Shown: positions 1,447 through 59,389 of the stretch, one piece after another
Layout: every line of letters starts with the position of its first letter
Position numbering within the stretch: position 1 is the stretch's first letter
Source of the DNA: Acidobacteriota bacterium
GTDB lineage: Bacteria > Acidobacteriota > Polarisedimenticolia > SMYD01
Direction: 5' to 3'
Assembly: GCA_046757405.1 (NCBI GenBank)
Contig: JBHHYE010000007.1
Span: forward strand, 25,222 to 89,221
Length of the DNA: 64,000 nucleotides
The notes under the pieces: generated by a model
Seen by the model: the letters and a program-made list of their open reading frames with translations, nothing else
Told to the model about the DNA's origin: nothing
Databases searched by the model: none
Position numbers and translations under genes: made by a program

Positions 1447-1462
1447 GGTGGCAAGCCACCCC

Positions 1463-27009: not shown

Positions 27010-27281
27010 GCTCGCCGCCTCACGACCGGGCATCAGCCCGCCGCGGTCAAGTTCCAAGAGGGATTAGAAGGGTTCTCAGACGGCCAGATCGTTCGAACGG
27101 GCAGGAATGCTCCCTGCCTGTTCAAGTGTCCCACACGCATTCCGCGGTGTCAAGGCAGCCTCGTTGCCTCCGCGCCGGCCCCCTGTTATTCTTCGCCCCG
27201 AGCATGGCAGGCCATCCGGGCGCCTGGGGTCACTTCCAGCCGAACCGGCCCCGCGAGGAGAGCGCCATCGGCAAGGTCGCG

Positions 27282-36025: not shown

Positions 36026-38043
36026 GCAACCCGGCTGCACGGGCGCGCGCGGCCGGAACAGCGTGGCGGCGGCGCTTGGCCACGGCCTTGATCCTCCTGG
36101 CCTTGGTCCTCGCCGCCGGAGCCTCCGCCCGGACGCTCCTGGCCTACGGATCCTGGATCACGGGGCCGCGCTTCTATCCACGCCTCGGTCCCGGGCAAGC
36201 CCGGGCCTTCGTGGCCGGCCAAGCAGCCGGCTGGCTTCCCGATGTCCTTTCCCGCGTCGCTCCCGGGCAGGAGGTCCTGGTGCCGACCAACCCTCCCCGG
36301 GACCAGGAGCGGCTGGCAGCCTATTACCTCTATCCACGCCCCGTGCGTATCGTTCCCACCGCCGCCGGACACCCTTTCTCTCCCCGTCCCTCGCCGGCCA
36401 GGGGCGACTTTCTCCTGCGAGACGGACACCTCCTGGAGTGGCCCTCGCTGGCGCCCGCATCCGTATCCCGGCCGCGGAACTCGCATGATTTTCCCCCGCC
36501 CTTCCCCTCGCCCCGGGCCTGGCTGGCCCTCCTGGTGACCGCCCTTTCCTCCCTGGGTTGGGGAACGATCTTTCTCAGGTGGCTCCGCCTGCGGTGGAGC
36601 CTGCGTCTCTCGACGGGCGAGTCCCGCGTGGTGCAAGCCGGCCTGGGTCTACTGATCGGGCTTTCCTTCCAGGGAGCGGTCGGCTTCGCCGCCGCCTACG
36701 CGGGATGGTCCGCCACCCCATGGCTCACCGTCTCCCTTTCCGCAGGAGGCCTGGTTCTCCTCTGGCCCTTCGCCCGCTCGCTGGCCGGCGGCCGGCTTTC
36801 CGCCTCTTCCCAGCCCGGACAGCGGCGTCCCACCTTCACTCCCCCGGACCCGTTCACCCCGTCTCTCGGCCGGATCCTGCGTCCTGTCTTGATTTTCCTC
36901 ATCGGTCTGCTGAGCCTGGCGCCCCTGGCACGCGCCCTCGCCGAGCCGATGCACCACTGGGATGAACGGTTTCAGTGGGCCTTCAAAGGGAAGATCCTGC
37001 TGGAAGAGGGAGGCCTGATGGGGCCCACCTTTCAGGAAAACGGTCGTCTCCACCTGCACCGCCGCTACCCTCTTCTGGTGCCCGCGCTGGAAGCCCACCT
37101 GGCGCGGCTGGCCGGGGGGTTTGCCCAGGAACGCGCCGTGAAGGGACTCTTCCCCCTTTTCTTCGCCGCCCTCCTGGCGGTGGCGTACGGAACCTTTCGT
37201 TGCCGTCTGGCCCCCTTTCCGGCCCTGGTCTGGACCACGCTGCTGGCCGCCCTGCCACCCTTCCACCACGCCTCCCTCATTCAGGGGGGCCCGGCGCACA
37301 CCGGCTTCGCCGATCTGCCGCTGGCTGCCCTGCTCGCGGGCGCCTGCTTTCTTCTCCTCTTCTTGCTGGAAGACCCGGGCGCGTCCACGGCCCGGGCCCT
37401 CCCTGGCTCGCCTCCAGGCTCTTCCGGCCCCTGCCTGCGCCTGAGCCTGGCGGTGGGATTCCTGGCCGGATGCGCGGCGCTCACCAAGCCCGAAGGCCTG
37501 GCCATTGCCGTGGCCATTCTCGCCGTGGTCGCCCTGGCCGCTCCGCGTCATGGCTCCGCCGGCTGGAAGGCCCTGGCGAGCGCCCTGCTGGTGGCCACGG
37601 TGATCGCCATGCCGCGTCTGGCCATGCGGTTCGTGGTGCCGGGGGCGGGGACCCTGGATTACACCGGCGATGCAGCCTATCTCTCCAGGCTGGCCCCCGC
37701 GCACCTGGTGGCGGGTCTCCGGGACCACCTGGCGCCGGCCCTAGGGGCCCTGATCACGGCGCCCTTTTCCAGCCGCTGGGCCTTCCTGGGGCTTCTCCTG
37801 GCAGGTGGACTCCTCACCGTGCCCGCCTCTCCCCGCCGCCATCCCCACCGGCTCGCTCTCCTGGTCCTGATTCCCCTGGCCGCGGATGGGCTGGCCTTCA
37901 TCCTCTCGACCTCGGACATCCACTGGCACCTGGCGGTCGCCCTCGATCGTCTGTGGATGCAGGTTCTGGTCCCTGCTTTCATGGTGGCCGGCGGCCAGGT
38001 GGCCAGCCTGCTGGAGGGCCCGGAGCACTTCTCCCCGGGTTGA
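36022..38043 (+). CDS. Uncharacterised polytopic membrane protein (possible GT-C-like)
   Basis: The GTG start overlaps the preceding stop (GTGA). One N-terminal TM is followed by a Pro-rich segment of about 150 aa and then 10 or more hydrophobic segments. Loop motif EPMHHWDERFQWAFKGK. No family is recognised with certainty. Confidence 0.5.
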   Translation: MSNPAARARAAGTAWRRRLATALILLALVLAAGASARTLLAYGSWITGPRFYPRLGPGQARAFVAGQAAGWLPDVLSRVAPGQEVLVPTNPPRDQERLAAYYLYPRPVRIVPTAAGHPFSPRPSPARGDFLLRDGHLLEWPSLAPASVSRPRNSHDFPPPFPSPRAWLALLVTALSSLGWGTIFLRWLRLRWSLRLSTGESRVVQAGLGLLIGLSFQGAVGFAAAYAGWSATPWLTVSLSAGGLVLLWPFARSLAGGRLSASSQPGQRRPTFTPPDPFTPSLGRILRPVLIFLIGLLSLAPLARALAEPMHHWDERFQWAFKGKILLEEGGLMGPTFQENGRLHLHRRYPLLVPALEAHLARLAGGFAQERAVKGLFPLFFAALLAVAYGTFRCRLAPFPALVWTTLLAALPPFHHASLIQGGPAHTGFADLPLAALLAGACFLLLFLLEDPGASTARALPGSPPGSSGPCLRLSLAVGFLAGCAALTKPEGLAIAVAILAVVALAAPRHGSAGWKALASALLVATVIAMPRLAMRFVVPGAGTLDYTGDAAYLSRLAPAHLVAGLRDHLAPALGALITAPFSSRWAFLGLLLAGGLLTVPASPRRHPHRLALLVLIPLAADGLAFILSTSDIHWHLAVALDRLWMQVLVPAFMVAGGQVASLLEGPEHFSPG

Positions 38044-42090: not shown

Positions 42091-43203
42091 CTAGCCCCCG
42101 GCGGCAGGGTTTCCGAAGAGCCTGACCATCTGCAGGCCCCAGACCAGCAGACCCACCGCGAGAACCCCCCAGAGCCAGGGATCGCGCAGCAGAAGGCCAG
42201 CAGGCCGGCCGGGGAGCATCGTTTCCCATCGACCCCCGAGGCGTCTTCGCAGGCCGTTCAGGCAGAGCCAGATGAGCACGGCCAGGGTGAGACCGGCCAG
42301 GAGACAGAGAGCCGATGTCGCCACCAGAGCCAGCAGGGCCATCGCCTCCGGATCCCACCCCGCCAGGAGACTCCCCGAGGCTCCGATCTGGCGGGCCACC
42401 TCATCGCGAAAGCTCTCCCAGGACATCATGTCCGCCTGCGCCCCGCCGGCGCGCCCGGCCAGGTGCGCCAGGCTGAGAGCCACCAGGTTGTTGACGGAGT
42501 GGGCGGCCACCGCCGGGAGGACCGATCCGGTGGCCAGGGTCAGCTCACCGAACACCACCCCGAGAGCCATGGTGGGCAAGAATCGAACCGGATCCATGTG
42601 AAAGAGCCCGAAGCAAACGGCGGTCACCCACACGGCCAGGTGGGCGCCATGGGTCCGCAGAGACGCCAGCAGGAAGCCGCGGAAAAAAACCTCCTCACAA
42701 AACGGCGCCACCACGGCCCCGGACAAGAGAGCCCAGGCGTAGTCGTTTCCCCCTTGCAAGGGGAGGGGCAGACCCGGATGATGACCCCCTAGAAAGAGAA
42801 AGATCAGGACCAGCGGCACCGTCAGACCGACCGCCATGCCGAAAGCCAATCCGCCGATGCCCGCCCCGGCCAGGAGCGGATCCCAGGCCTCTCTCCCGGC
42901 GAGCCTTCTTCCCAGGATCACGGCCGGGCGAATGCCATGCAGCCTGCAGGCCAGGAGGGCCGGGGCCAGGAGAAGCGCGATCTCGGTGAAGAGAAGGCCC
43001 GGGATGACCGACCATTCTTGCGCGGCCGCGCCCAGGCTGAGCAACAGGACAAATACGATGAAGAGCAAACGGGTCCCCTGGCCGGGTCGAGGCAGGTGGG
43101 TGTCGGTGGGCATCATGGCCGAGACCGCCACCAGCTGAGACATTCCCAGGGATCTGTGCCGGGCGGCGCCGGCCAAGGTATCAGAGGGACCCTGCACGGA
43201 CAA
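42091..43203 (-). CDS. CPBP-family intramembrane glutamic endopeptidase (CAAX protease-like) with extra C-terminal TMs
   Basis: Motifs CEEVFFRGFLL, FGLFH, AAHSVNNLV. The start is uncertain (43203 or the internal ATG at 43143). Confidence 0.8.
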   Translation of the reverse strand: MSVQGPSDTLAGAARHRSLGMSQLVAVSAMMPTDTHLPRPGQGTRLLFIVFVLLLSLGAAAQEWSVIPGLLFTEIALLLAPALLACRLHGIRPAVILGRRLAGREAWDPLLAGAGIGGLAFGMAVGLTVPLVLIFLFLGGHHPGLPLPLQGGNDYAWALLSGAVVAPFCEEVFFRGFLLASLRTHGAHLAVWVTAVCFGLFHMDPVRFLPTMALGVVFGELTLATGSVLPAVAAHSVNNLVALSLAHLAGRAGGAQADMMSWESFRDEVARQIGASGSLLAGWDPEAMALLALVATSALCLLAGLTLAVLIWLCLNGLRRRLGGRWETMLPGRPAGLLLRDPWLWGVLAVGLLVWGLQMVRLFGNPAAGG

Positions 43204-43220
43204 TCCGCCCTCTCACGAGA

Positions 43221-43238
43221 TCGTAATTCCTATTACGA
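43221..43238. promoter_or_regulatory. Perfect 7-bp inverted repeat TCGTAAT-tcct-ATTACGA in the AT-rich island
   Basis: Read directly from the sequence. It lies about 20 bp upstream of the predicted -35 of the pilin-module promoter and is a candidate operator. Confidence 0.35.
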
Positions 43239-43257
43239 ATAATGAATATTAATACTC

Positions 43258-43285
43258 TTGCAGAAGCATAGCTTTTGTCTATACT
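43258..43285 (+). promoter_or_regulatory. Sigma70-like promoter (TTGCAG - 16 nt - TATACT) for the pilin/EPS module
   Basis: The hexamers and spacing were read directly. It sits in the only markedly AT-rich stretch of the window, 57 nt upstream of the first pilin-like start. Confidence 0.5.
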
Positions 43286-43341
43286 ATAGATATGCAGAAA
43301 GGTGTCTTGGGCAACCCAAAAATATGGTGAAGGAGATGAGA

Positions 43342-43821
43342 ATGCCGTGCCTTCGCAGTGGCAGGGAACGAGGCTATTCACTGGTCGAGATTCTTCTGGT
43401 TCTCGCCATCGCGGCAATTCTCCTCACCGTCTCCATCCCGGCTCTCAGCCAGTACATGCGCTCCTACTCGGCGCGCGTGGCGGCCGACCAGTTCGTCAGC
43501 CACCTGCGGCTGGCGCGCCACCTGTCCATCGCGCGCCACCAGCCCGTGAATGTCGCCGTGACGTCCAAGACCTACACCCTACCCGACTGGAACAGCTCCG
43601 ATCTCTCCACGGCGCCGTCACGCTCCTGGGACCTACCGCCGACCTGCTCCATCGTCAGCGGGACGGCAACGGTGTCGTTCCAGCCTGACGGAACCGTCTC
43701 CGCGGGCAGCGGGAACATCCGGCTGGAGATCGCCCTGGACGACACGGTGACGGCCCGCTACGAGGTCACCGTCTCGGCCTCGGGCAAGGTGAGCTCCACC
43801 TACACGCGGGTGAGCTCGTGA
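43342..43821 (+). CDS. Minor (pseudo)pilin, FimT/FimU/GspH-like
   Basis: Class III signal MPCLRSGRERG|YSLVEILLVLAIAAILLTVSIP (Glu at +5), followed by SARVAADQFVSHLRLARHLSIARHQPV, typical of the GspH/FimT domain. SD AAGGAG lies 6 nt upstream of the ATG at 43342. Confidence 0.75.
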   Translation: MPCLRSGRERGYSLVEILLVLAIAAILLTVSIPALSQYMRSYSARVAADQFVSHLRLARHLSIARHQPVNVAVTSKTYTLPDWNSSDLSTAPSRSWDLPPTCSIVSGTATVSFQPDGTVSAGSGNIRLEIALDDTVTARYEVTVSASGKVSSTYTRVSS

Positions 43822-44294
43822 CCCAGCCCCGGCGGTTCTCCCTCCAGCGCGGTTTCAGCATGGTGGAGGTGCTGCTGGCGTTGAGCCTCCTGGGCGTCGT
43901 CCTGATCTCCATCACCTCCCTGTTCATCATCGGCGGCCGGCGCGTCGCCCAGGGGAGGGAGCGGACCGAGGCCCTCTCGGTGGGAACACACATCATGGAA
44001 ACCCTGGACCAGATGTCCTACCGCGGCCTGTACACCAACTTCACCACGGCATCCGACCCCGGCGCCGCCGCCGGCCCACTCACCATCGACAGCCGCACCA
44101 ACCCCGATGCTCTCACCCTGGGCTGGCAGAACCTGATCGACGCCAAGCTGGACAACGGCTACGCCATCATCACCGTGGAGCGGATCGGAGGTGCCGATTT
44201 CCGGACCGCCACCAGCCTCCGGGTGACGACCACCGTCTACTGGGATGATCTGGACCGCAGCCGTAACATCACGCTCGAGACCTTGAGATTCTAG
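43818..44294 (+). CDS. Minor (pseudo)pilin, PilV/GspI-like
   Basis: Leader VTQPRRFSLQRG|FSMVEVLLALSLLGVVLISITSLF. The GTG start overlaps the preceding stop (GTGA). Confidence 0.7.
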   Translation: MTQPRRFSLQRGFSMVEVLLALSLLGVVLISITSLFIIGGRRVAQGRERTEALSVGTHIMETLDQMSYRGLYTNFTTASDPGAAAGPLTIDSRTNPDALTLGWQNLIDAKLDNGYAIITVERIGGADFRTATSLRVTTTVYWDDLDRSRNITLETLRF

Positions 44295-44320
44295 AGCCGC
44301 CGGAAGCCATGGAGGGTCCC

Positions 44321-46930
44321 ATGCAAGACCAGGCAAATCACCGACGGCGACTGCAGGAGGGGTTCAGCCTCGTCGAATTGACGGTCGCCTTCGCCATCTT
44401 CCTGGTGGCGGCGCTGGCCGCGTACGCGCTTTATTATGGCGGCACGCGGTCGTTCAAGCAGGCCGAGAACGCCACGGACGTCCAGCAGAACGCGCGCACC
44501 GGTTTCGACCGCCTGACCCGCGAGCTACGCCTCGCCGGGTTCAACCAGAACGCCGACGGCGCCGCTGCCCGTCCCGACGAGCAGTTCGAGGGGGCGTGGG
44601 ACACGGCCATCACCATCCGCGGCGACTTCGACGCAGAAGACCCGGCCCTGAGCACGACCCCGGAGACCTCCCTGGCCGGCACTTTCAATGTCGTCACGAC
44701 CGGCAACGATGAGATCGTGACCTACGCTCTTGGGAAACCGGCTCTCCCCAACAGCACGGCGATCTCCTACACCGCCGACGTGGCCGAAACCACCCGCGAC
44801 GGCGACGAGGAGGCGGTCTCCATTCCCGGTCCGGTGCTGGTGCAGGATGATCCCCCCTACACCCTTTACCGGATCAGCCCGAAGAATGTGAGCAGCATGG
44901 GGGGGTTCGACGGTGCCTTCGACAGCGCCGCCGAATTCCTCTTCGAGCCGATTGCCGAGAACATTCGCTCCCTCACCTTCAAGTACTTCGATGTGTCCGG
45001 AGCGCTCATCAATCCGGATACGCCAGCGGACCCCACGGATGACATCGGAGGCGGCGATGCCAACCGCAACCAGCGCGCGCGGATCACGCGGGTGGAGCTC
45101 GACCTCGAGGCCATGACACCGGAGCCGGATCCCCAGTTCATCGATCCGGCCGACCCCAATCCGGCCACCCAGAACTTTCGCAAGATTGATCTGACCGCCA
45201 GTGTCACGCCGCGGAACACCGGCCTCAAGGGAATCCCCGACCTGGATCTGCAGCCGCCGTCCACTCCCACCGGCCTGGCCGCCTGCCCGGGGCACTGTGC
45301 CGGCATCCTCCTCACCTGGAATGCCAATCCCCCCAGCGAGCTGGTGACCGAGTACCGGGTGGCCTACGGCACCTCCACCGGAAACCTCACCACCACCCGT
45401 ACCACCAGCCAAACATCCCTCTTCATCAATGCGCTGAACCCGGCGGCGACCTACTATTTCTCCATCCAGGCCCTGGACGCCGCAGGCAACGCCAGCCCGC
45501 CCTCGGCGGAGATCAGCGCCACCACCCTGGACGACACCGAGCCCGGCCTGGTCCCTGGCTTCGCCGCCGCGGGCTCCACCGCCGACCCGGGCATCCTGGT
45601 GAGCTGGACTCCGGTGACGCAGAACGACAATACCGTCGCCGGCGCGTCCGGCCCCGGCGGGTGCGACGTCGACAAGCCTTTGAACCGAGACCTGGATGGG
45701 TACGCCCTCTTCCGCAACCAGGGAGGCGATCCGGCCACCAGCAACCTCGGCAGTGCCCTGGCCGGCCCCACGACCCTTAACCAGAACGCCGTCCAGTACC
45801 TGGACACGGCCGTGGTCGCCTGCCGCAATTACACGTATGACATCCGCGCCGTGGACGCTTGCGGCACCGCGGGGGGGAATCAGGCCTCCACCGTGACCAC
45901 CAGCTACACCACGACCGTACCGCCGGCCAAACCCCAGAATGTCAACGCCTCGGAGTCGGGCGTCAACAAGAATACCATTGTCTGGGACGCGGTGACGGCC
46001 GATGCCGGCGGCAAGCCGACCTCCGTGGCCGGGTACCACATCTACCGCGCCGAGGCGCCCCCCGGGAACCCGCCCGGCGCCTCGCTGTTCACCACTCCCA
46101 TCGGGTTCAGCAATACCAATTCTTACGTGGACAACTATACCGGCGGGGACCCGCCCGCAACGGGCAATATCTACTACTACCGCATCACCGCCCTGGACGA
46201 CTGTCCCAATGAATCGGAGCTCTCGGCCGCTTCAGGCGCCAGCTGCGCCTTCGACGGACAGGTGATCATCACCCCGGGCGCCGGCACCACGGTCTTCGGG
46301 GTGCAAACCATCCAGCTCACCGCCGATGGGACCGACACCTACGTGCAGGGCAGCGTGACGGTCTTCGATGAGACCGGAAACAGCGTGCTGGGCCCCCTCA
46401 CCTCCATGACCTACCCGTTCAGCTTCACCTGGGACACCCGCAGCCTGAACCCCGGCCCGTACCTGATCACGGGTGCCATCGTCAACGCCACGGGTTGCAA
46501 CAAGACCTCCTCGGCGGCGGTCCAGACCATCACCACCCCGGCCTGCTGCCTCACCCAGACCTCCACGAGCCTGGCCTCGGATAACAAGGCCAACTCGAAC
46601 CTGGTGGCCGGGATCCTGGCCAATCTCTGCCAGAATAACCTGGTCGCCAGCGCCATCACGGTGACCTTCAACCTGACCGACAGCAAGACCAAGCTCGACG
46701 ACATCCGCTGGAACGGCGTGAGCATCATCTCGGGCGTGAACCACACCTCTCCGTTCAGCTCCTCGATTTCGGTCCCCATCCCCTCGACCTTCAACGGCGG
46801 GGGCCAGCAAGACGTCGTGTTCGATTTCGACCGCACTCTCGTTCCCGGCGACATCGTGAGCTTCGACCTGACCTACAGCGGCCCGGTGGTCAGCACCCAG
46901 ACCTGCACCTTCACCAGCGTGGTCAACTAG
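44321..46930 (+). CDS. Giant PilW/GspJ-like minor (pseudo)pilin with three FN3-like modules and C-terminal Ig-like modules
   Basis: Leader MQDQANHRRRLQEG|FSLVELTVAFAIFLVAALAAYALY, then the PilW-like NARTGFDRLTRELRLAG. FN3-like units run from about 45250 to 46250 (for example PSTPTGLAA..LLTWNANPP..YRVAYGT..YYFSIQALDAAGNASPPS). GGAGGG lies 4 nt upstream of the ATG at 44321; the ATG at 44309 is also possible. Confidence 0.7.
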   Translation: MQDQANHRRRLQEGFSLVELTVAFAIFLVAALAAYALYYGGTRSFKQAENATDVQQNARTGFDRLTRELRLAGFNQNADGAAARPDEQFEGAWDTAITIRGDFDAEDPALSTTPETSLAGTFNVVTTGNDEIVTYALGKPALPNSTAISYTADVAETTRDGDEEAVSIPGPVLVQDDPPYTLYRISPKNVSSMGGFDGAFDSAAEFLFEPIAENIRSLTFKYFDVSGALINPDTPADPTDDIGGGDANRNQRARITRVELDLEAMTPEPDPQFIDPADPNPATQNFRKIDLTASVTPRNTGLKGIPDLDLQPPSTPTGLAACPGHCAGILLTWNANPPSELVTEYRVAYGTSTGNLTTTRTTSQTSLFINALNPAATYYFSIQALDAAGNASPPSAEISATTLDDTEPGLVPGFAAAGSTADPGILVSWTPVTQNDNTVAGASGPGGCDVDKPLNRDLDGYALFRNQGGDPATSNLGSALAGPTTLNQNAVQYLDTAVVACRNYTYDIRAVDACGTAGGNQASTVTTSYTTTVPPAKPQNVNASESGVNKNTIVWDAVTADAGGKPTSVAGYHIYRAEAPPGNPPGASLFTTPIGFSNTNSYVDNYTGGDPPATGNIYYYRITALDDCPNESELSAASGASCAFDGQVIITPGAGTTVFGVQTIQLTADGTDTYVQGSVTVFDETGNSVLGPLTSMTYPFSFTWDTRSLNPGPYLITGAIVNATGCNKTSSAAVQTITTPACCLTQTSTSLASDNKANSNLVAGILANLCQNNLVASAITVTFNLTDSKTKLDDIRWNGVSIISGVNHTSPFSSSISVPIPSTFNGGGQQDVVFDFDRTLVPGDIVSFDLTYSGPVVSTQTCTFTSVVN

Positions 46931-46939
46931 GAGTCCGCC

Positions 46940-48859
46940 ATGCGAAACCGATTCATGGCAGACCGGAGAACGACTGGCAGGAGCCGCGAGCGCGGCTCGG
47001 CGCTGGTGATCGCCACCCTGGTGATGGTGATCCTGACCCTGCTGGGGCTGTCGTACCTGACCCTGGCCGACACCGAGAGCCTCATCGCCCTCAACATGAC
47101 CTACCAGGAGCAAGCCCTCTACGCCGGCGAGTCGGCGGCCCGGGCGGTGGTGAACTGGTTCAACGACCCCTCGCCGGCCACCGGGTTCCTGATCCCGACG
47201 CTGGCCCAGGTGGACCGCACCCAGCGCTTCATCGATCATGACGACGACCCCACCACGGCCACCATCACCAACTCCGGCACGCCGGTGGTGGAAGGCGACC
47301 CGACCAAGCCGTTCTACCGGGACGGCAGCAATGACCTGTTCGACAAGCCGTACAGGGGATCCCTGGCGCTGGCGTTCACCGGGACCGAGGCCGGTCCCGA
47401 CCTGGTGGTTGACGCCGCCGCCGGAGGCAACCAGGCCGTCTTCCTGAACAGCTTGAACGCCGCTCTCTTCGACACCTATCCGTCGGACATCACGATCACC
47501 ACCGCGGCGGAGGCTCCTCTCCGCGCCCGGGTCCTCAAGATCGAGATGTACGAGCCGCCCCTGGTGAATCTGTCCGGCACCTGGAGCCGGTACGGTATCG
47601 CCACCATCAAGGTCACGGTGGGGATCTTCGCCTTCGCCGCCGATGCAGACGCCTCCAACGACCGCCAGGTGGCGCGGAAGGTCGTGAAGGTGGTGGTCAA
47701 CGAGACCCCTTACCCCGGCCCCACCGGGCCGCTCGAGACCTGCAACCTGCTGCAAACCAACGGTGACTTCGAGGTGCACTGGGGTGTGGCTTCGGCAATC
47801 GGCGACGTGACCCTCAACGCAAACTGGGATTCGAAGCAGGATTCCACCTTCCCGTTCGCCCAGGACAGCAACACCAGCCATATCTACACGGATCCCATGG
47901 GACCTCCGGGCAACTCGGATTTCTTCGATACCTGGTATGCCAACTGGCAGGGACAGATCCTGGAGGATCCCTGGTACAAGCTCGAGGCCGGGGGACAGAT
48001 CAACGCCCTGGGCACCGGTGACATCCAGCCGTTCGACCCCCAGCTGGCCACGGCTCCGGAGGACCACTCCAACCTGTTCCAGAACCTGGGCGCGCTGGCG
48101 GTCCAGTGCCCCGATTTCGACTACCAGACCTGGAAGGCCATCGCCCAGACCGGGGGCAAGAACGTTCTCTACCTGGCTTACGACCAGGCCACCCAGACCT
48201 TCAAGCTCGACGGCATGGGCGATCCCAAGTCGTTCCGCACCTGGACGGAAGACCAGACCGGAGTCTTCTTCTTCGACACCACCGACGCCCTGCCTCCGGC
48301 CCCCGACGGCTCCAACCTGACCCCCACCATCGGCATCAGCGGCGGCACCTGGACCACCGAAGGGTTCATCTACCTCAACGCGGCCAACTTCACCACCACC
48401 GGCGCCGGCTCGCCTCCCAGCCGCTGGATCTTCCCGCCGGGCGAGCCGTATATCGACCTGGACAACGACGGCCAGTTTGACGTGGGCGAGCCGTATGTGA
48501 ACCTGAACTACGCCTCCGGAGTCTTCACCGTAGATCAGACCGCCGCGCAGACCGTCATCGCCGACACCGACGGCGACGGCATCACCGAGACCTACACCAC
48601 AACCGCCGCCCGGGATGTGCTGGGACCGCCGTTCCAGACCCCCATCAACCTGTACGGCATCATGTACACCAGCGGAGACTACCAGGCACAGGGGAACTTT
48701 TCTTATTTCGGCTCGGTGGTGGCCAAGGGGCAGATCGGCCCGAGCGCCTCCGGCACGCCCGATTATTACTGGGACGACCGGATCATCCAGGGAGGCTGGC
48801 CGCCCCCCGGCCTGGACCTGCCACGGGTCATCATCTCCCGCTGGGAGGTCGAGCTGTAG
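46940..48859 (+). CDS. Giant PilX/GspK-like cap subunit with PilY1-like Ca-binding loops
   Basis: The PilX_N-type N-terminus RGSALVIATLVMVILTLLGLSYLTLADTE has no Glu at +5. The C-terminal region of about 570 aa contains DLDNDGQFD (48455-48481) and DTDGDGITE (48563-48589). SD AGGAG lies 6 nt upstream. Confidence 0.65.
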   Translation: MRNRFMADRRTTGRSRERGSALVIATLVMVILTLLGLSYLTLADTESLIALNMTYQEQALYAGESAARAVVNWFNDPSPATGFLIPTLAQVDRTQRFIDHDDDPTTATITNSGTPVVEGDPTKPFYRDGSNDLFDKPYRGSLALAFTGTEAGPDLVVDAAAGGNQAVFLNSLNAALFDTYPSDITITTAAEAPLRARVLKIEMYEPPLVNLSGTWSRYGIATIKVTVGIFAFAADADASNDRQVARKVVKVVVNETPYPGPTGPLETCNLLQTNGDFEVHWGVASAIGDVTLNANWDSKQDSTFPFAQDSNTSHIYTDPMGPPGNSDFFDTWYANWQGQILEDPWYKLEAGGQINALGTGDIQPFDPQLATAPEDHSNLFQNLGALAVQCPDFDYQTWKAIAQTGGKNVLYLAYDQATQTFKLDGMGDPKSFRTWTEDQTGVFFFDTTDALPPAPDGSNLTPTIGISGGTWTTEGFIYLNAANFTTTGAGSPPSRWIFPPGEPYIDLDNDGQFDVGEPYVNLNYASGVFTVDQTAAQTVIADTDGDGITETYTTTAARDVLGPPFQTPINLYGIMYTSGDYQAQGNFSYFGSVVAKGQIGPSASGTPDYYWDDRIIQGGWPPPGLDLPRVIISRWEVEL

Positions 48860-49004
48860 GAGAACACCGCCAGACCTCCACCACCCTCCTTTCCTCTCTC
48901 CCCTGGAAGAGAGAACATGGAAGGCGGCGGCGGGAGGCCGGACGACAAGGGGCCGGGCCAGGTGAGGGAGGCCCCCGCCGGCCCGGGGAGGGGGGTGAAC
49001 GGAC

Positions 49005-51323
49005 ATGAGCCTGCTCACCAAAATGTTCCTGGTGTCCATGCTCCTGGGCGCCACGGTGGTGCTGAGCCGCTGGGTTCCCCGGCATCCCCGCTGGCGTCCC
49101 CTGGTCATCCTCCTCAATCTGGCCATCACCGGACGCTACCTGTGGTGGCGGGGCACCCAGACGCTGAACTGGACCAGCGGCTGGGGCATCGCGGTCAGCC
49201 TGGCGGTCTATCTGGCCGAGCTGTACGGCTTCCTGGTGGTCCTGCACCACTATGTCATCGCCACCCGGGCCACCTCCCGGCAAGCGCCCGAGCTCAAGGA
49301 AGGAAAATACCCGCCGGTGGATGTCTTTGTCGCCACCTACAACGAGAGCACCGACATCCTCTACCGGACCCTGGTCGGCTGCCTGGCCATGGACTACCCG
49401 GACAAGCGGATTCATGCCCTGGATGACGGCGCTCGCCAGGAGGTGGCCGACCTCTGCCGGCGGCTGGGCGTGGATTACCTGGCGCGAGAGGATCATGCGG
49501 GCGCCAAGGCCGGCAATCTGAACCACGGCCTGGCCTCCACTCACGCCGACCTGGTGGCCACCTTCGACGCGGATCACGTGCCGGTGGAGAGCTTCCTGAA
49601 GGAGACCGTGGGTTTCTTCCGCAATCCCGGCGTGGCCCAGGTGCAGACGGCGCATCACTTCTACAACCCCGACCTCTTTCAGGATCAGCTGCGCATCCGC
49701 GAGTACATCGCCAACGAGCAGGACATGTTCTACCACATCGTCCAGCCCGGGCGGGACGTCTACAACTCGAGCTTTTACTGCGGCTCCGGCGCCGTGTTCC
49801 GGCGGAGCGCGCTCGAGGAGATCGGCGGCTTCCCCACCGCCACCGTGACCGAGGATCTCCACACCTCGATGCTCCTGCACAGCCGTGGCTGGAGATCCAT
49901 CTATCTGGACCGCAATCTCTCCGCCGGCCTGGCGCCCGAGTCGTACGACGCTTTCCTGACCCAGAGACGGCGATGGGCCCGGGGCACCTTCCAAGTCCTG
50001 CTGCGCCAAGGCGGTCTGTTCCTGCGCGGACTCACCCTCATGCAGCGCCTCAACTACTTCGCCACCTTCTGGTACTGGCTCTACGGATTCCCCCGGCTGG
50101 TCTATCTGGTGGCTCCCCTTCTGTTCCTGCTGGGAGGGTTGCATCCCCTCCTGGTGCGGGACCTCAGCGACCTGCTGGTCTTTTACCTTCCCCATCTGGC
50201 GGTCTCCATTGCCGCTTTCCAGCTGGTCAATCGCTCCATGCGGCGCATCTTCTGGTCGGATGTCTACGAATCGTGCATCTCGGTCCAGGTCGCCCTCACC
50301 GCGCTCTTTTTCCCCTTATCTCGCGGCCGCGGCCGCTTCCGGGTGACACCCAAGGGGCATGCCACGGCGACGGGATCCTCGTGGAAGATCGCCTGGCCTC
50401 TGGTTCTGCTGGCCGGGCTGGTGGCGGTCGGCTTCTTCACCGGCCTCACACGCCTGATCACCTCGGGAACGGAGCAGGAGGGGCTGCTGATCAACACCAT
50501 CTGGGCTGCCTACAATCTGCTGGTCCTGTCCCTGGGCCTGCTTCTTCTCCGACCCCGCCCCCACCGGCGGGCCGCCATCCGCCTGCCGCGGCACCTCCCC
50601 TGCCATCTGTCGGGCAAGGATCTCTCGGTGGCCGGACAGACCCTGGACCTCTCGGAGACCGGCCTCTCCGTTCGCATCGAGCCGGCCCGGCCGCTACCCG
50701 AGCGACTGGATATCGTCCTCACGGACCGCCAGGGCCAGCGGCTCACGGTGCGCGGGCGGCTCGTGCGCTGCGACGTGGATGCCGACAACCGCCTCGCGGC
50801 GGCGGTGGATTTCACCGACCTGTCTCCCGACCAGCATCGACGGATCGTGGAGCTGATATTCTCGCCCGCCCATTCCTGGAGTGGCCCCCATGGCCTGACC
50901 ATGGGGGCTCCGGAGCACCTGTTGCGGATCCTGCGTTCCCTGATCGGCATCTTTTCTCCCGAGGAGCGCATGCGCCGCCTGTCTCCCCGTTTCCGCTGCA
51001 ACCTGCCGGCCTCCATCCTTTCCGAGGACGGCACCAGCACGCCGGCGCGCGCCATTGACGTGAGCGTGCGGGGCGCGGCCCTGCGCCTGCGGCGCGGCCA
51101 GCGCCCCCCGGTTCCCGAGCGGTTCCGGCTGACCCTGTCCTGGAATGCCCTGGAACGCACCACCCTGGAGGCCAAGGTCCGGGATGTGCGCACGGGAGCC
51201 GGCGGCGGGCCGATCCTGGGAGTCGTCTTCACGGAGCTTGGACCCCAGCAGCGGGCCGATCTCAGGAAGCAACTGTACCGGCGGCCCAGGCGGGTCATGT
51301 CCGCGGCCAGCACGGCCTCATGA
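49005..51323 (+). CDS. Processive GT2 glycan synthase (BcsA-like) with two tandem C-terminal PilZ domains
   Basis: VDVFVATYNES, DDGAR, FDADHVP, TEDLHTS, QRRRWARG (QxxRW). PilZ-1 is RRAAIR..DLSETGLSV (about 50565-50865). PilZ-2 is RRLSPR..DVSVRGAAL (about 50973-51280). Confidence 0.85.
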   Translation: MSLLTKMFLVSMLLGATVVLSRWVPRHPRWRPLVILLNLAITGRYLWWRGTQTLNWTSGWGIAVSLAVYLAELYGFLVVLHHYVIATRATSRQAPELKEGKYPPVDVFVATYNESTDILYRTLVGCLAMDYPDKRIHALDDGARQEVADLCRRLGVDYLAREDHAGAKAGNLNHGLASTHADLVATFDADHVPVESFLKETVGFFRNPGVAQVQTAHHFYNPDLFQDQLRIREYIANEQDMFYHIVQPGRDVYNSSFYCGSGAVFRRSALEEIGGFPTATVTEDLHTSMLLHSRGWRSIYLDRNLSAGLAPESYDAFLTQRRRWARGTFQVLLRQGGLFLRGLTLMQRLNYFATFWYWLYGFPRLVYLVAPLLFLLGGLHPLLVRDLSDLLVFYLPHLAVSIAAFQLVNRSMRRIFWSDVYESCISVQVALTALFFPLSRGRGRFRVTPKGHATATGSSWKIAWPLVLLAGLVAVGFFTGLTRLITSGTEQEGLLINTIWAAYNLLVLSLGLLLLRPRPHRRAAIRLPRHLPCHLSGKDLSVAGQTLDLSETGLSVRIEPARPLPERLDIVLTDRQGQRLTVRGRLVRCDVDADNRLAAAVDFTDLSPDQHRRIVELIFSPAHSWSGPHGLTMGAPEHLLRILRSLIGIFSPEERMRRLSPRFRCNLPASILSEDGTSTPARAIDVSVRGAALRLRRGQRPPVPERFRLTLSWNALERTTLEAKVRDVRTGAGGGPILGVVFTELGPQQRADLRKQLYRRPRRVMSAASTAS

Positions 51324-53140
51324 GCCGCCCTCTCACCTGGATGCTGCTGGCGGCCCTGCTGGTGTCCCTGCCCGGCGGTCCCCGGGCCGCGGCCGCTCCG
51401 GAGCAGGAGGCCGCCCTCGAGAGCGCCCGCAGGCTCACCTGGAAGGCGGAGACCCGCGAGGCCGGGATTGCCTCCTTGCGCCGGCTGGTGGCCAAGCATC
51501 CGGATGGGGTCGAAGCCCGCCTGGAGCTGGGCCGGGTCCTGACCTGGAAGCAGAGCACGCGCGCCGAAGGGATCCGTCTCCTGCGCGCGGTCCACGCCGA
51601 GGTTCCCCAGTGCGCCGATGTCACCGAAGCCCTGGCTGAAGTGCTCACCTGGAATCCCGGCACCCGGGAAGAAGCGATCGGGTTGTTGCGCCGGCTGGGC
51701 CGGGATCACCCGGAGTGGGTCTCGGCGCGGCTGGTGCTGGCCGAGGTCCTGTCATGGGATCGGAGCACCTTGAACGAGGCCATCGGCCTCTATCGGAAGA
51801 CCCTGGCGCAGTCTCCCGACTCGGCCAAGGCCCGGCTGGGACTGGCCCGGACGCTTTCCTGGCAAGGCGACCTGGAGGCCTCGCGCACTCTGTACGAGGA
51901 GGCCCTGGCCCGCGAGCCGGGCGATCCGGTGGCGCGCCTGGGGCTGGCCGAGGTGGAGCGCTGGTCCGGACGCTCGAGGATCTCCTTGAGAGTCCTGGGC
52001 ACACTCTCACCAGAAGAGACCGATTCTCCCGCCGCCCATGCCCGGCGAGGCGACGCCTACGCGGACCTGGGACGCCCGGCGCTGGCGCTGGCCGAGTACG
52101 ATGCCATCCTCGCCGTGGATCCGGACAACGAAGCGGCGCGGCGCGGCGCCAATCACGCGCGCCGCAAGCTGCGCCCCTCCCTGGAGACCGGAGCCAGCGG
52201 CAGCACCGAATCAGGAGACCCCCGCACCAGCAAGGTGCAGATCCTGTCGCTCCCGATCACCTACCGCTGGCATCCCGCAGGGGATGCCGAGGTCCGCCTG
52301 CTGGCTCGGCCCGCGTTTTACGATAATGACCGCGGCACCACCGAGACCGTCTCTGCCGGGGCCACCTTCGAGACCCCGGTGGGCTTGCGCTCCCGGCTGC
52401 ACGCCCAGGTGATGGGCCACGATTTCGAGGACACCGACTCGGAGATCACCGGCCGACTCGAATGGCGCGTGGCGGCCTCCGACCGGGTCGTGTTTCGCGT
52501 GGGCGGCGAACGGGAACTGCTGCAGGACTCGCGTCTTTCGGCCGTGGGGGAGAGCCTGGGCGGCCTCGTTTTCGGCCCCGCCGTCCAGACGGAAGCGTTC
52601 CTGGAGATCACGGTTCACCCGGGCCGTGCCTGGGACGCCTCCCTCCGTGGCGCCACCGGCACGGTGGAGGGAGACAACCTGCGTGATAACGATCGGCGGG
52701 CCCTCTTCGGCGGGTTCGGCCGCTCCTTCCACCTGGGCAACGCCTGGCTGCGGCCCGGATACAGTGCCACCTGGTTCTCCTTTGACCGGGATCTCAGCGG
52801 TTTTCCGCCCGGCGATCTCGCCGGGGATGGCGTGGACAGCCGGGGCGTGGGTGGTTACTTCTCCCCTTTCCGTTTTCTGAACCAGATGGTCCGGCTGGAC
52901 ACGGCGTGGAGCATGGGCCAGCGCCTCGAGTTCAGCGCCGGCGGCGGCATCGGGCTCCAGCAGGTCGAGGACATCGGCTCCCCCGATTTCGACGACACCA
53001 CCACCTCGTCGGATGCCTACTTCCGGCTGCAGTGGCAGATCGCCCTGGATGTGGCCCTCCGGGCATCCGTCAGCCACCAGGATGTGGCCTCGGCCTTTGA
53101 CCGCACCCGGGGCGGAATCTCCCTCATCTGGACCTTCTAG
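51320..53140 (+). CDS. TPR-repeat + C-terminal outer-membrane beta-barrel exporter (PgaA/BcsC-like architecture)
   Basis: The ATG overlaps the synthase stop (ATGA). Signal peptide MLLAALLVSLPGGPRAAAA. Five TPR-like repeats have a conserved (L/E)xW (LTWK, LTWK, LTWN, LSWD, LSWQ). The C-terminal half has alternating hydrophobic strands and ends in ISLIWTF, with the terminal Phe typical of OMPs. Confidence 0.65.
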   Translation: MSRPLTWMLLAALLVSLPGGPRAAAAPEQEAALESARRLTWKAETREAGIASLRRLVAKHPDGVEARLELGRVLTWKQSTRAEGIRLLRAVHAEVPQCADVTEALAEVLTWNPGTREEAIGLLRRLGRDHPEWVSARLVLAEVLSWDRSTLNEAIGLYRKTLAQSPDSAKARLGLARTLSWQGDLEASRTLYEEALAREPGDPVARLGLAEVERWSGRSRISLRVLGTLSPEETDSPAAHARRGDAYADLGRPALALAEYDAILAVDPDNEAARRGANHARRKLRPSLETGASGSTESGDPRTSKVQILSLPITYRWHPAGDAEVRLLARPAFYDNDRGTTETVSAGATFETPVGLRSRLHAQVMGHDFEDTDSEITGRLEWRVAASDRVVFRVGGERELLQDSRLSAVGESLGGLVFGPAVQTEAFLEITVHPGRAWDASLRGATGTVEGDNLRDNDRRALFGGFGRSFHLGNAWLRPGYSATWFSFDRDLSGFPPGDLAGDGVDSRGVGGYFSPFRFLNQMVRLDTAWSMGQRLEFSAGGGIGLQQVEDIGSPDFDDTTTSSDAYFRLQWQIALDVALRASVSHQDVASAFDRTRGGISLIWTF

Positions 53141-53151
53141 CCGCGCCCGCA

Positions 53152-53169
53152 CCGGGCATTCCCGCCCGG
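53152..53169. terminator. Small GC hairpin (CCGGGC-attccc-GCCCGG) between convergent genes
   Basis: Read directly. The stem is only 6 bp and there is no U-tract. Confidence 0.2.
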
Positions 53170-53184
53170 ACTGGAAAGACAGGC

Positions 53185-53952
53185 TCAGTCCGATGGCCCG
53201 CCGAGCAAGCCGAGCAAGAAGAAGAAGACGCCGCGGAAGACCAGCTTGAAGTGCTGGGTGAAGTCCAGGGCGACGACGAACAAGGAGGGATAGAAGATCG
53301 CCGGATGGCGCTCCGCCCCATCCACCACGCGGTCCAGGAGCCGGGCCGGCCGCCGCTCCACCTGCCAGGCCGCCAGGCCCGCGCCCGCGCCCATGAGAGC
53401 GCCGGCCAGCATATCGGAGGGATAATGAAAGCCGACACCGATGCGGACGAAGGAAAGACAGGCCGCACCCACCAGGCCGGCCCAGCCGAGCCTCGCGCCC
53501 CAGGCGAAGAGACCCACCGCCAGCGCGAAGAACAAGGCGGCATGGTCCGATGGAAAAGCGCCGAAACCGAGCATTCCGCCCACGATCCCATCCCACTGCT
53601 CCTTTTCAATCGGAATACGGAGCGACTCCTGTACCAGAGGCCGGCTCCCATCGACGGCGTAGGCCACCAGACGGGCGCCGATGAAGGCGGCGGCCACCCC
53701 CTGCGCCACACTGACGCATCGACGCCTCGAAATCCTCAGGCCCGGCGACTCCGGGGCCGCGCCACCGGCCAGGAGACGCCCTCTCCAGCTGCGCCCCCCC
53801 TCCAGATCAGTCCACCACAACGCCAGCAAGACCACTACGCAGCCCACCAGGGGGAGGGGGCCGCACAGGAGCAAGGCCATCTCGAACAGCCCGCGGGAAC
53901 TCGCGAGAGCATGGTTGCACAACTCCAGAAGATGCAGGTCCAGACCGTTCAC
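53185..53952 (-). CDS. PAP2-family (type 2 phosphatidic acid / polyprenyl-PP) phosphatase
   Basis: PSDHAALFFA (PSGH-like) and RIGVGFHYPSDMLAGALMG (SRxxxxxHxxxD-like) motifs. Polytopic. Confidence 0.8.
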   Translation of the reverse strand: MNGLDLHLLELCNHALASSRGLFEMALLLCGPLPLVGCVVVLLALWWTDLEGGRSWRGRLLAGGAAPESPGLRISRRRCVSVAQGVAAAFIGARLVAYAVDGSRPLVQESLRIPIEKEQWDGIVGGMLGFGAFPSDHAALFFALAVGLFAWGARLGWAGLVGAACLSFVRIGVGFHYPSDMLAGALMGAGAGLAAWQVERRPARLLDRVVDGAERHPAIFYPSLFVVALDFTQHFKLVFRGVFFFLLGLLGGPSD

Positions 53953-57589: not shown

Positions 57590-57799
57590 TCAGTGCCCGC
57601 CCCGATCTCCTTCCGAGCGAAAGGCGCTCAAAACCTGGACCGCCCGGGATGTCTCGACCACGATCCAGTCACGGTAAACCTTGCTTTGATCGGGAAGCAA
57701 GGTGTATCTCCGCTCCTGGAACTGAAAGTTGACATAACCGCTGGGGTCCGTTTTTTCTCTCGCCGTGCGGCGAGTCGTGGACAGGCGAGGCGTCGACAT
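57590..57799 (-). CDS. Candidate small protein (69 aa), unknown function
   Basis: The ATG at 57799 is preceded by GGAGGG about 11 nt upstream. My hand count of GC3 is about 71%, which is coding-like. I recognise no motif (MSTPRLSTTRRTAREKTDPSGYVNFQFQERRYTLLPDQSKVYRDWIVVETSRAVQVLSAF..). Confidence 0.35.
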   Translation of the reverse strand: MSTPRLSTTRRTAREKTDPSGYVNFQFQERRYTLLPDQSKVYRDWIVVETSRAVQVLSAFRSEGDRGGH

Positions 57800-58001
57800 C
57801 CTGGGGGTTCCCTCCTTCCGATTCCGCCCCGTACGGGAGAGCAATTTCCGCGCCAGCCCGGTCAGACGCGCTCCGTTCACGGCTCCCGGCCATCCTCAGG
57901 ACCGTCTCTGCCGTCTGCGGCCGCATTCACGCCGCCGGAGCGCTTCTGTCTCCACCGGGACGATCGCCGCGCCGCCGGCCATTCTGGCCAACCGGGCACA
58001 C

Positions 58002-58030
58002 TTGATCGGCCAAAATGGCCGGCATACTAT
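58002..58030 (+). promoter_or_regulatory. Sigma70-like promoter TTGATC - 17 nt - TACTAT ending 6 nt before the regulator ATG (implies a leaderless mRNA)
   Basis: The hexamers and spacing were read directly. The spacer contains the palindrome GGCCAaaaTGGCC. There is no SD between the -10 and the ATG at 58037. Confidence 0.4.
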
Positions 58031-58036
58031 CTTCGG

Positions 58037-59389
58037 ATGGCGGCCCCCCACACCATCCTCCTGGCGCTGGGGCCGCAGCGGAAGGGAGCCCGGGTCATCC
58101 GGAAGCTCCTTCGGGTGGACGGAGGCCGCCTCCTGGTCGCTCGATCCGCCCGGCAGCTGTTCACTCACCTCGACTCGATGCCCGTGGACCTGGTCCTCCT
58201 GGACCAGGGCTTCCCCGAACCGCCCGGCATGGAGCTCCTCCTCATGCTCAGGGATCGCATGGCACCGCCTCCGGTGATCATGCTCGCGGACCCGGCTGAG
58301 CCGCAGTCCATCTGCGAGTGCCTGCGCCGAGGAGCGGACGACTGTGTGGTCCGGCCGTTCAGGGGAGAGGAACTGCGCGCCAGGGTGGACCACACCCTCG
58401 AGCGCGCGGCCATGGAGCACCGCGTGAGGAACTTCCAGACACTCGCTCCCGCCACGCCGTTGATCATCCAGGATTCCCCCGCCATGCGCCGCGCGCTCCA
58501 CCTGGTGGCTCGCATCGCGCCGACGCGAAGCACCGTTCTCATCCTGGGTGAGAGCGGTGTCGGCAAGGAGCTCTTCGCCCGCGCCATCCATCGCCAGAGT
58601 CCCCGCATCCACGGACCCTGGATACCATTGAACTGCTCGGCGATTCCAGAGTCCATCATCGAATCCGAGCTGTTCGGCCATGAGCGCGGGGCCTTCACCG
58701 GCGCCATCAGCCAGACGAAAGGGAAATTCGAGCTCGCTGATGGTGGCACGGTCTTCCTGGACGAGGTGGGAGAAATGAACCGCTCCAGCCAGGCCAAGCT
58801 ACTGCGCATTCTGGAGGAAAGAGAAACGATGAGAGTCGGCGGATCCCGGCCGGTCCGCATCGACGTCCGCGTCCTCGCGGCCACCAACAGCGACCTGCAG
58901 GCCAAGATGAGAACGAAAGAGTTCCGGGAGGACCTCTTTTTCCGCCTCAACGTGGTCAGCATCCGGGTCCCCGCCCTGCGCGAGCGCCGGGAGGACATTC
59001 CGCATCTCGCCGATCATTTCCTCGGGAAGTCCATCCGGACCAACTGTGCGCCGCTTCGCCGCTTCCACCCGCAGGTGCTTGATCTCTTTCTCTCTTACTC
59101 CTGGCCCGGGAACGTCCGGGAGCTCAAGAACCTCATCGAGAACTTGGTCCTGACGGTTCCCACCACCGAGATCGCCGCCGACGACCTGCCCACGGTGATG
59201 CGCCATCCACGCGCTGCCCCTCCGGCTCCGGGAGTCCTGCGGCCAGGAATGGCCATTCACGAGGCCGAGAAGGAGTTGATCCGCCGGACGCTGGTCCACG
59301 TCCGGGGCAATCGTGCACAAGCCGCAGGCCTGCTCCAGATCGGGGTGCGCACCCTGCAGCGCAAGATCCGCCGCTATGACCTGTCCTGA
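58037..59389 (+). CDS. Sigma54-dependent Fis-family transcriptional activator (NtrC class) with a degenerate receiver domain
   Basis: AAA+ Walker A GESGVGKE, GAFTGA, Walker B VFLDEVGEM, R-finger region, C-terminal Fis HTH GNRAQAAGLLQIGVRTLQRKI. The receiver keeps DLVLLD but lacks the DD pair (ILLALGPQ), and KPF is replaced by RPF. Confidence 0.88.
   Translation: MAAPHTILLALGPQRKGARVIRKLLRVDGGRLLVARSARQLFTHLDSMPVDLVLLDQGFPEPPGMELLLMLRDRMAPPPVIMLADPAEPQSICECLRRGADDCVVRPFRGEELRARVDHTLERAAMEHRVRNFQTLAPATPLIIQDSPAMRRALHLVARIAPTRSTVLILGESGVGKELFARAIHRQSPRIHGPWIPLNCSAIPESIIESELFGHERGAFTGAISQTKGKFELADGGTVFLDEVGEMNRSSQAKLLRILEERETMRVGGSRPVRIDVRVLAATNSDLQAKMRTKEFREDLFFRLNVVSIRVPALRERREDIPHLADHFLGKSIRTNCAPLRRFHPQVLDLFLSYSWPGNVRELKNLIENLVLTVPTTEIAADDLPTVMRHPRAAPPAPGVLRPGMAIHEAEKELIRRTLVHVRGNRAQAAGLLQIGVRTLQRKIRRYDLS

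Follow-up and report, generated by a model that had tools for sequence, protein, structure and literature searches.

Introduction

Minor pilins are known from several bacterial filament systems. The products of Pseudomonas aeruginosa fimU-pilVWXY1E and the GspH-I-J-K pseudopilins prime filament assembly and form the tip (PMC5979040). For ComZ of Thermus thermophilus, a GspK-like pilin that carries a large beta-solenoid and is encoded after pilA1-pilA2-pilA3, the pilus tip has been argued to be the sole place that it can take (PMC6561018). The nearest and only precedent that we found for coupling pilins to polysaccharides is the hps locus of Nostoc, where the pseudopilin genes hpsB-D lie beside the glycosyltransferase genes hpsE-G and polysaccharide export with the type IV pilus system has been proposed (PMC6495340). 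In P. aeruginosa, surface sensing by type IV pili and PilY1 raises cyclic di-GMP (c-di-GMP) (PMC4324313, PMC8806160). Here, we analyze a stretch of 64,000 nucleotides (nt) from an Acidobacteriota bacterium (GenBank contig JBHHYE010000007.1; hereafter, the window, in whose positions all coordinates are given) that carries four minor-pilin genes followed by genes for a BcsA-like synthase and a BcsC-like porin.

The initial annotation of the window had read these six genes as one functional, cotranscribed module. Its family calls (pilins, synthase, exporter, and the promoter of gene 1) held up, whereas the module was not supported, as the two gene sets are separate outside one clade. We favor, with a probability of about 0.72, a reading in which the locus consists of two operons, each of a known kind and separable from the other, that came together once, in one sub-lineage of Polarisedimenticolia-like Acidobacteriota. 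What is new here is that variants of two known kinds stand side by side. We found no described system in which four minor pilins are joined to a BcsA/BcsC pair, and the reason, as our evidence indicates, is that the combination is not a system. The features of the locus are as follows.

43224-43323, + strand: AT-rich intergenic region with a sigma-70-like promoter (32% GC; hexamers read in the sequence)
43342-43821, + strand: gene 1, GspH/FimU-like minor pilin, ~160 amino acids (aa) (PF12019 GspH and N_methyl)
43818-44294, + strand: gene 2, minor pilin in the PilV/GspI position, 158 aa, G/FSMVE (N_methyl)
44309-46930, + strand: gene 3, giant pilin, 869-873 aa, G/FSLVE (N_methyl, fn3, Big_7)
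46940-48859, + strand: gene 4, minor pilin of 639 aa resembling ComZ, in the GspK/PilX position (sub-threshold PilX_N, structure model)
48860-49004, + strand: GC-rich intergenic gap of 145 nt between the two gene sets
49005-51323, + strand: gene 5, BcsA-type processive GT2 synthase, 772 aa, with two C-terminal PilZ domains (BcsA alignment, domain matches)
51320-53140, + strand: gene 6, short BcsC-like outer-membrane exporter, 606 aa (signal peptide, TPR, BCSC_C barrel)

The quartet is like fimU-pilVWXY1E and GspH-I-J-K in its four-gene order, with a GspH/FimU-like member first and Glu+5 in all members but the fourth. Unlike those sets, it comes without PilY1 and PilE, its genes 2 to 4 fall below curated cutoffs, gene 3 has no PilW/GspJ similarity, and genes 3 and 4 exceed their counterparts in size three- to fourfold. 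It also resembles T. thermophilus pilA1-pilA2-pilA3-comZ, where three small-to-medium pilin genes precede a much larger atypical pilin without Glu5. The Thermus locus differs in that identity is ~10% and the template modeling score (TM-score) is low, that the third pilin here is giant (873 aa, with an fn3/Ig stalk), and that no pilA4 equivalent follows. The synthase/porin pair shares with the BcsA-BcsB-BcsC systems of Escherichia coli and Rhodobacter (PMC11379886, PMC8892547) the full catalytic signature, an aligned PilZ domain, and a TPR plus BCSC_C partner. In contrast to those systems, it has no BcsB nearby, a second intact C-terminal PilZ, a porin of 606 rather than ~1,150 aa, and a two-gene operon, and it misses the equivalog cutoffs. 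As in Nostoc punctiforme hps (hpsA-D, a membrane protein and pseudopilins; hpsE-G), pseudopilin genes lie directly upstream of a glycosyltransferase gene. However, the Hps glycosyltransferases are not of the BcsA type with PilZ, and the two halves of hps differ in their sigma-factor response. A conserved pseudopilin-glycosyltransferase linkage of the Hps type was not found for our locus, where the adjacency is confined to one clade and has a single origin.

Results

The pilin quartet and the synthase/porin pair occur apart in relatives

To place the quartet, we used the window proteins to search 77 loci with the gene 4 family, all drawn from species-representative genomes. This family is large and acidobacterial, with most members in metagenome-assembled genomes of Polarisedimenticolia and Thermoanaerobaculia. 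Among the 77 loci, a BcsA/BcsC-like pair adjoins the quartet only in L007 (73% identity); in L008 (gene 4 at 72% identity), the DNA ends directly after gene 4. None of the loci whose gene 4 homologue has 44% identity or less carries BcsA/BcsC within 10 kb, and a synthase is nearby in 0 of the ~70 acidobacterial quartet loci outside the window's clade.

Seen from the synthase, seven loci have the quartet upstream (the window, L001, L007, L087, L090, L091, and one JGI contig [no DNA]), while in 17 others, for which 1.9 kb or more of upstream DNA is available, the synthase/porin pair comes without pilin genes (L084, L085, L086, and 14 further metagenome loci). In L084, the complete genome CP070706, the pair comes after riboflavin genes, and downstream of it lies the PAP2 gene known from the window. 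Homologues of genes 5 and 6 are always paired, with a 4-nt overlap, wherever downstream DNA exists. The two-gene operon without BcsB nearby is conserved in the window (49005-53140) and in L084-L086 and L092-L106.

The neighbor-joining tree of full-length BcsA (740 columns) groups the six linked loci with DNA into one clade (150 of 200 bootstraps, 75%), and the unlinked L084 is the sister of that clade. When only the N-terminal 404 columns were used, L090 and L091 stood unresolved among the unlinked loci; the full-length tree resolved both. Because the six linked loci form a single BcsA clade, the tree indicates that the quartet-synthase adjacency arose once and was then inherited. The CAAX, PAP2, DsbD, BON, and CarboxypepD_reg neighbors are equally conserved in the linked loci, and the six-gene order is therefore kept no better than the synteny around it.

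Outside the linked clade, the quartet has other companions. About 35 of the loci with gene 4 identity of 44% or less contain, in this order, a TPR protein, a prepilin peptidase (Peptidase_A24), a PAS histidine kinase, the quartet, an open reading frame (ORF) of 177 to 207 aa, and a sigma-54 response regulator. In a second context, a TPR protein and PilD precede the quartet and there is no kinase; in a third, a gene 4 homologue stands without recognizable genes 1 to 3. Judged by gene content, the quartet is usually found in type IV pilus surroundings, with PilD and a PilS/PilR-like pair. We considered the 177- to 207-aa ORF as a major pilin and rejected it, as it encodes a signal-peptide/coiled-coil protein with no Pfam family. 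In L003 (1-14023) and L005 (1-14054), the conserved cluster adds a GT4 glycosyltransferase and an ABC transporter (ATPase plus ABC-2 permease) upstream.

Several genomes hold two or three paralogous giant-pilin cassettes, in the three gene contexts (range L007-L083). Examples of such copies are L045/L046/L049, all from one genome, L026/L047, L025/L054, L040/L055, L029/L058, L038/L063, and L019/L069. The multiple cassettes suggest several specialized pilus tips per cell.

Most linked relatives have a terminator between the quartet and the synthase

The junction between genes 4 and 5 is the widest of all junctions in every linked locus, and its length varies as follows.

Window: 145 nt
L091: ~175 nt
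JGI contig: 240 nt
L087: 251 nt
L090: ~275 nt
L007: ~360-400 nt
L001: 398 nt

A hairpin followed by a T run, the signature of a terminator, stands directly after gene 4 in four of the six linked loci with DNA.

L001: 10-bp stem with 9 GC, then TCTTTTTTT (z-score, -5.6)
L087: 11-bp stem, then TCTTCTT (z-score, -3.65)
L090: long hairpin, then TTTTTCTTTTT (T5CT5) (z-score, -4.45)
L091: weaker hairpin plus T run

Because these terminators follow gene 4, most members of the clade seem to transcribe the two sets as separate units. According to the alignment, the segment that bears the hairpin in L001 and L087 has been lost from the window gap. Upstream of the synthase, TATTCGTCAT is found only in L007 and L087.

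The quartet encodes three class III pilins and a ComZ-like cap

Only three class III signal peptides were found in the whole window, G/YSLVE in gene 1, G/FSMVE in gene 2, and G/FSLVE in gene 3, each with Glu+5. The N_methyl scores of these genes range from 24.5 to 26.1 bits (cutoff, 21.2). Gene 4 has a hydrophobic N-terminal pilin helix (G/SALVI) without Glu+5, so that the set has the three-plus-one pattern of a minor-pilin quartet, as the initial annotation had seen. The order like H/I/J/K that the annotation had also proposed held up as well; by family models, gene 1 matches GspH, gene 2 (PilV) and gene 4 (PilX_N) match below threshold, and for gene 3 no PilW/GspJ similarity was found.

The leader of gene 1 ends in ...RERG/YSLVE, and the ATG of the gene at 43342 follows AAGGAG at a distance of 6 nt (other possible starts, 43336 and 43325). 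With 39.6 bits to PF12019 GspH (cutoff, 21) and 25.8 bits to N_methyl, the first member of the quartet belongs to the GspH/FimU family; ComGD, XpsH, and GspH models matched below their cutoffs. Gene 2, whose start overlaps gene 1 via GTGA, reached 24.5 bits with N_methyl, 28.3 bits over the full TIGR02523 PilV model (cutoff, 52.2), and 15.2 bits with GspI (cutoff, 44.35).

The AlphaFold2 model of gene 3 (predicted local distance difference test [pLDDT], 83) has a pilin-type head of ~300 aa followed by ~5 fn3/Ig-like beta-sandwiches. All Foldseek matches to the whole model were multi-fn3 chains, which are uninformative on the head and the C-terminal domain. When the head was searched as a 305-aa profile against PDB and Pfam, only pilin helices and N_methyl matched, with no PilW/GspJ match. 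The GspJ model aligned with the N-terminal helix only (15.4 bits versus 64.85). The PilW/GspJ label of gene 3 thus comes from its position in the gene order and its pilin helix. In the model, the fn3/Ig domains are probably a stalk or an adhesin.

Gene 4 scored 21.8 bits with PilX_N, just below the cutoff of 25.5, and many of its homologues carry PF14341. Its AlphaFold2 model (pLDDT, 74; predicted TM-score, 0.72) contains a beta-solenoid, and the top PDB match is ComZ (6qvi; E value, 2.7e-5; probability, 0.98), followed by ice-binding beta-solenoids. As TM-scores to ComZ are low (0.19 to 0.23, at ~10% identity), the modeled likeness is one of common architecture and not of close kinship. The gene 4 family profile had no matches among PDB sequences.

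Two other leads for the quartet were dropped. Tapirin, a cellulose-binding pilus protein, matched in NCBIfam through the N-terminal helix only (E value, 0.014), and its structure was only the 10th match to the gene 4 model (E value, 1.2), so the lead offers no support for cellulose binding. Nor did the quartet fit the Verru_Chthon cassette of four pseudopilin genes (NCBIfam TIGR02596-02600): protein D reached 33.3 of 70 bits and protein C 12 to 13 of 256.5 bits, and proteins A and B had no match.

The 100 nt at 43224-43323 have the lowest GC content of any such interval in the window (32%; mean, 0.659; standard deviation, 0.052), about 6 standard deviations below the mean. The hexamers TTGCAG (43258-43263) and TATACT (43280-43285), separated by 16 nt, are present in this AT-rich stretch as first annotated. 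A stricter sigma-70 consensus scan of the window did not list the site. Both hexamer positions are kept in three relatives (L001, L007, and L087) as TTGACT/TTGATA-16-TATATT, and because of this conservation, the site is probably the genuine promoter of the pilin operon. About 10 nt upstream of the -35 hexamer (43240-43249), a TGAATAT/TGCATAT element is kept in all four aligned loci (the window and the same three relatives) and may be a regulator binding site.

Gene 5 and gene 6 form a BcsA/BcsC-like pair without BcsB

The domains of gene 5 are GT2/Cellulose_synt and two PilZ stretches in Pfam, and the protein aligns with E. coli BcsA (7lby) over residues 8 to 626 (E value, 1.3e-108). All signature motifs are present (DDG, KAGN, DxD, QTxHHF, FxCGS, TED, and QxxRW) and invariant in 17 homologues. 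Both PilZ domains have the c-di-GMP motifs (RRAAIR/DLSETG and RLSPR/DVSVRG), whose residues R522/R526, D548/S550/G553 and R658/R662, D685/S687/G690 are likewise invariant in the 17 homologues. The QxxRW GT2 synthase with tandem PilZ domains of the initial annotation is borne out by these data, as is its TPR/beta-barrel exporter by the TPR and BCSC_C matches of gene 6. Gene 5 stayed below the curated cellulose synthase equivalogs (TIGR03030, 576.8 versus 699.1 bits; PRK11498, 442 versus 992). The synthase and porin were also far from the Pga (poly-N-acetylglucosamine) type (TIGR03937, 90 versus 422 bits; PgaA, 34 versus 367 bits). An exact-sequence look-up of the synthase found none on record.

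Gene 6, whose start overlaps gene 5 via ATGA, reached 83 bits with TPR_19 and 53.1 bits with BCSC_C (cutoff, 23.5; profile positions 89 to 272 of 336). Against the BcsC equivalog NF008520, it scored 52.6 of 858 bits, and it has about half the length of BcsC. No BcsB was found in the ~25 loci examined; within 8 to 10 kb, it was absent from the window, L001, and L084-L089. Distant relatives of the synthase (41 to 43% identity), also without BcsB, adjoin a GH8 (BcsZ-like) gene plus BcsG in L088 and a GT2 gene plus a TPR protein in L089. Because of these neighbors, gene content supports a cellulose-like product for the synthase family. We found no paper on an acidobacterial cellulose synthase or bcsA with PilZ.

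Coding evidence and surroundings of the six genes

The six ORFs on the + strand (43258/43342-43821, 43818-44294, 44309-46930, 46940-48859, 49005-51323, and 51320-53140) and their tight junctions (-4, +14, +9, +145, and -4 nt) reproduced the initial coordinates exactly. GC at third positions is 0.81 to 0.91 in all six genes and therefore typical of real coding sequence in a window of 66% GC, and every one of the genes has numerous homologues. Antisense ORFs opposite genes 3 and 4 and the gap (46232-49129, - strand, 965 aa; 44525-46039, - strand, 504 aa) are shadow ORFs of a GC-rich genome, because they lack the third-position GC bias (neither is among the ORFs with a value of at least 0.75). 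An Rfam scan of 42800-53400 (E value, ≤1), including c-di-GMP riboswitches, gave no matches.

Opposite-strand genes flank the six-gene block on both sides.

42091-43203, - strand: CAAX/Rce1-like protease, the upstream neighbor, divergent from gene 1
53185-53952, - strand: PAP2 phosphatase, the downstream neighbor, with DsbD beyond

Farther upstream, beyond the protease, lie purL and purF. The other window genes are housekeeping genes or unrelated to genes 1 to 6, and our survey upheld the reported absence of PilB/C/D/M-Q, GspD/E/F, BcsB, and a major pilin from the 64-kb window. Other envelope/glycan genes, which have no evident connection with the synthase, lie 9 to 16 kb upstream of the block. 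They encode two membrane glycosyltransferases of the PMT_2 (ArnT/GT39-like) family (26988-29120 and 34022-36025, both + strand) and an SGNH hydrolase that matches AlgX weakly (32880-33974, - strand). The second PMT_2 gene, a PMT_2/TPR glycosyltransferase-like gene, is overlapped at its end by 4 nt by the start of a 673-aa ORF (36022-38043, + strand) that has no Pfam match. Nowhere in the window is the GC content higher than around this ORF (0.71), and the AT skew there is strongly negative.

At 57593-59389 (+ strand), the gene for a sigma-54 response regulator that has a long extension at its N terminus is convergent with that for a hybrid PAS histidine kinase that carries two receiver stretches (59374-61317, - strand). 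Since it shares only 40% identity in the AAA+ core with the PilR-like regulator of quartet loci, the window regulator is probably not its orthologue. A 1,135-aa protein with Sortilin-Vps10/BNR repeats is encoded at 1448-4855 (+ strand).

Discussion

In the reading we favor, operon A (promoter at ~43258-43285; genes at 43342-48859) would supply four minor pilins. By established knowledge of such pilins, the products of genes 1 to 3 would undergo cleavage and N-methylation by a prepilin peptidase whose gene lies elsewhere. Together with the ComZ/GspK-like cap encoded by gene 4, they could form the priming complex of a type IV filament and end up at its tip, where, as the models suggest, the gene 3 stalk of fn3/Ig domains and the gene 4 beta-solenoid may act as an adhesive or ligand-binding head. 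These roles are proposed by analogy with Pseudomonas FimU-PilVWX, GspHIJK, and Thermus ComZ (PMC5979040, PMC6561018). Operon B (49005-53140) would be a minimal synthase-dependent exopolysaccharide system. On c-di-GMP binding to PilZ, the gene 5 synthase in the inner membrane would polymerize and translocate a beta-glucan, most likely a cellulose-like one, and the short BcsC-like protein would pass the chain across the periplasm and outer membrane, as suggested by BcsA/BcsC (PMC11379886, PMC8892547). The two sets would be regulated separately in the window too, and any tie between the operons would be at most regulatory (e.g., surface contact raising c-di-GMP) and not structural.

Several observations weigh against this separation. 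The window gap, the shortest of all at 145 nt, contains neither a hairpin plus T run nor a sigma-70-like promoter match; as a whole, it folds no more stably than shuffled sequence (z-score, -0.30), and its halves folded separately show no terminator. L007 is also without a detectable terminator after gene 4. No promoter motif of gene 5 is conserved across linked and unlinked loci, as k-mer sharing is confined to subgroups. The adjacency has survived ~30 to 35% protein divergence. Moreover, most contigs come from metagenome-assembled genomes, and a second quartet linked to PilD/PilS/PilR in the linked genomes would lie beyond view. It is therefore plausible that, in the window, transcription from the pilin promoter runs on into the synthase gene. 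In a stronger version of this scenario, which we consider quite doubtful, the window lineage lost the terminator, its gap shrank to 145 nt, and the pilus-tip operon now reads into a c-di-GMP-gated synthase; the adhesive tip and the cellulose-like matrix would be made as one program, and the tip might bind the cell's own glucan. If true, the read-through would show two adhesion modules at an early point of their evolutionary fusion.

A single transcription unit and system of all six genes, in which the glucan is displayed on or guided by the tip or an adhesin and matrix are made together for attachment, is the alternative closest to the initial annotation. The shared strand between opposite-strand genes fits such a unit, as do the sole promoter-like element upstream of gene 1, the lack of a terminator in the window's 145-nt gap, the retention of the adjacency in seven loci, and the precedents of Nostoc hps (PMC6495340) and P. 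aeruginosa surface sensing (PMC4324313, PMC8806160). We nevertheless regard it as unlikely. The halves are apart in every locus outside one clade, with a synthase near the quartet only in that clade, at gene 4 identities of 72% and above, and 17 unlinked versus 7 linked synthase loci; the adjacency has a single origin; and the synthase/porin pair is evidently self-sufficient in those 17 loci, whereas the quartet normally sits beside PilD and a PilS/PilR-like pair. The relatives thus show both what the gap of the window does not, a predicted transcript end after gene 4 (four of the six linked loci), and, outside the clade, no conserved synteny between the sets.

That relatives of the quartet adjoin type IV pilus genes and no synthases also bears on the idea that the pseudopilins are a structural part of the glucan exporter, a periplasmic piston or conduit in place of the missing BcsB. 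No BcsB-family gene was seen beside any member of the synthase family, and the pilin genes are immediately upstream of the synthase. However, 17 loci, among them the sister lineage L084, have the BcsB-less pair and no pilin genes, and a pseudopilus needs an ATPase and a platform, which are absent from the window; we find this idea hardly credible. The quartet might instead be the tip of a competence (DNA-uptake) pilus or of a type II secretion pseudopilus, and not of a pilus for motility or adhesion, with the synthase adjacency still incidental. This would suit the match of the gene 4 model to ComZ, the DNA-binding tip pilin of T. thermophilus (PMC6561018), and the GspH and ComGD model matches of gene 1. 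It appears very improbable to us, given that the ComZ match (TM-score, 0.19 to 0.23; ~10% identity) is one of architecture only, that the relatives lie beside a PAS kinase plus sigma-54 regulator (like type IVa PilS/PilR), an ABC transporter, and PilD, and that no GspD/E/F genes were seen. Two operons that met once in one sub-lineage thus remain the reading that we prefer.

The apparent pilus/exopolysaccharide hybrid would then be a lineage-specific juxtaposition of two autonomous operons, and it should not be annotated as one machine. Each operon also matters in its own right. The synthase belongs to a widespread acidobacterial BcsA-like family with two intact PilZ domains, in which a BcsC-like porin of half the usual size is a constant partner and BcsB is never close by; this bears on the question of whether BcsB is universally needed. 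The giant minor-pilin cassettes, with their fn3/Ig stalk and ComZ-like beta-solenoid, occur in one to three copies in Polarisedimenticolia and Thermoanaerobaculia genomes and are candidates for specialized pilus tips in a poorly studied phylum.

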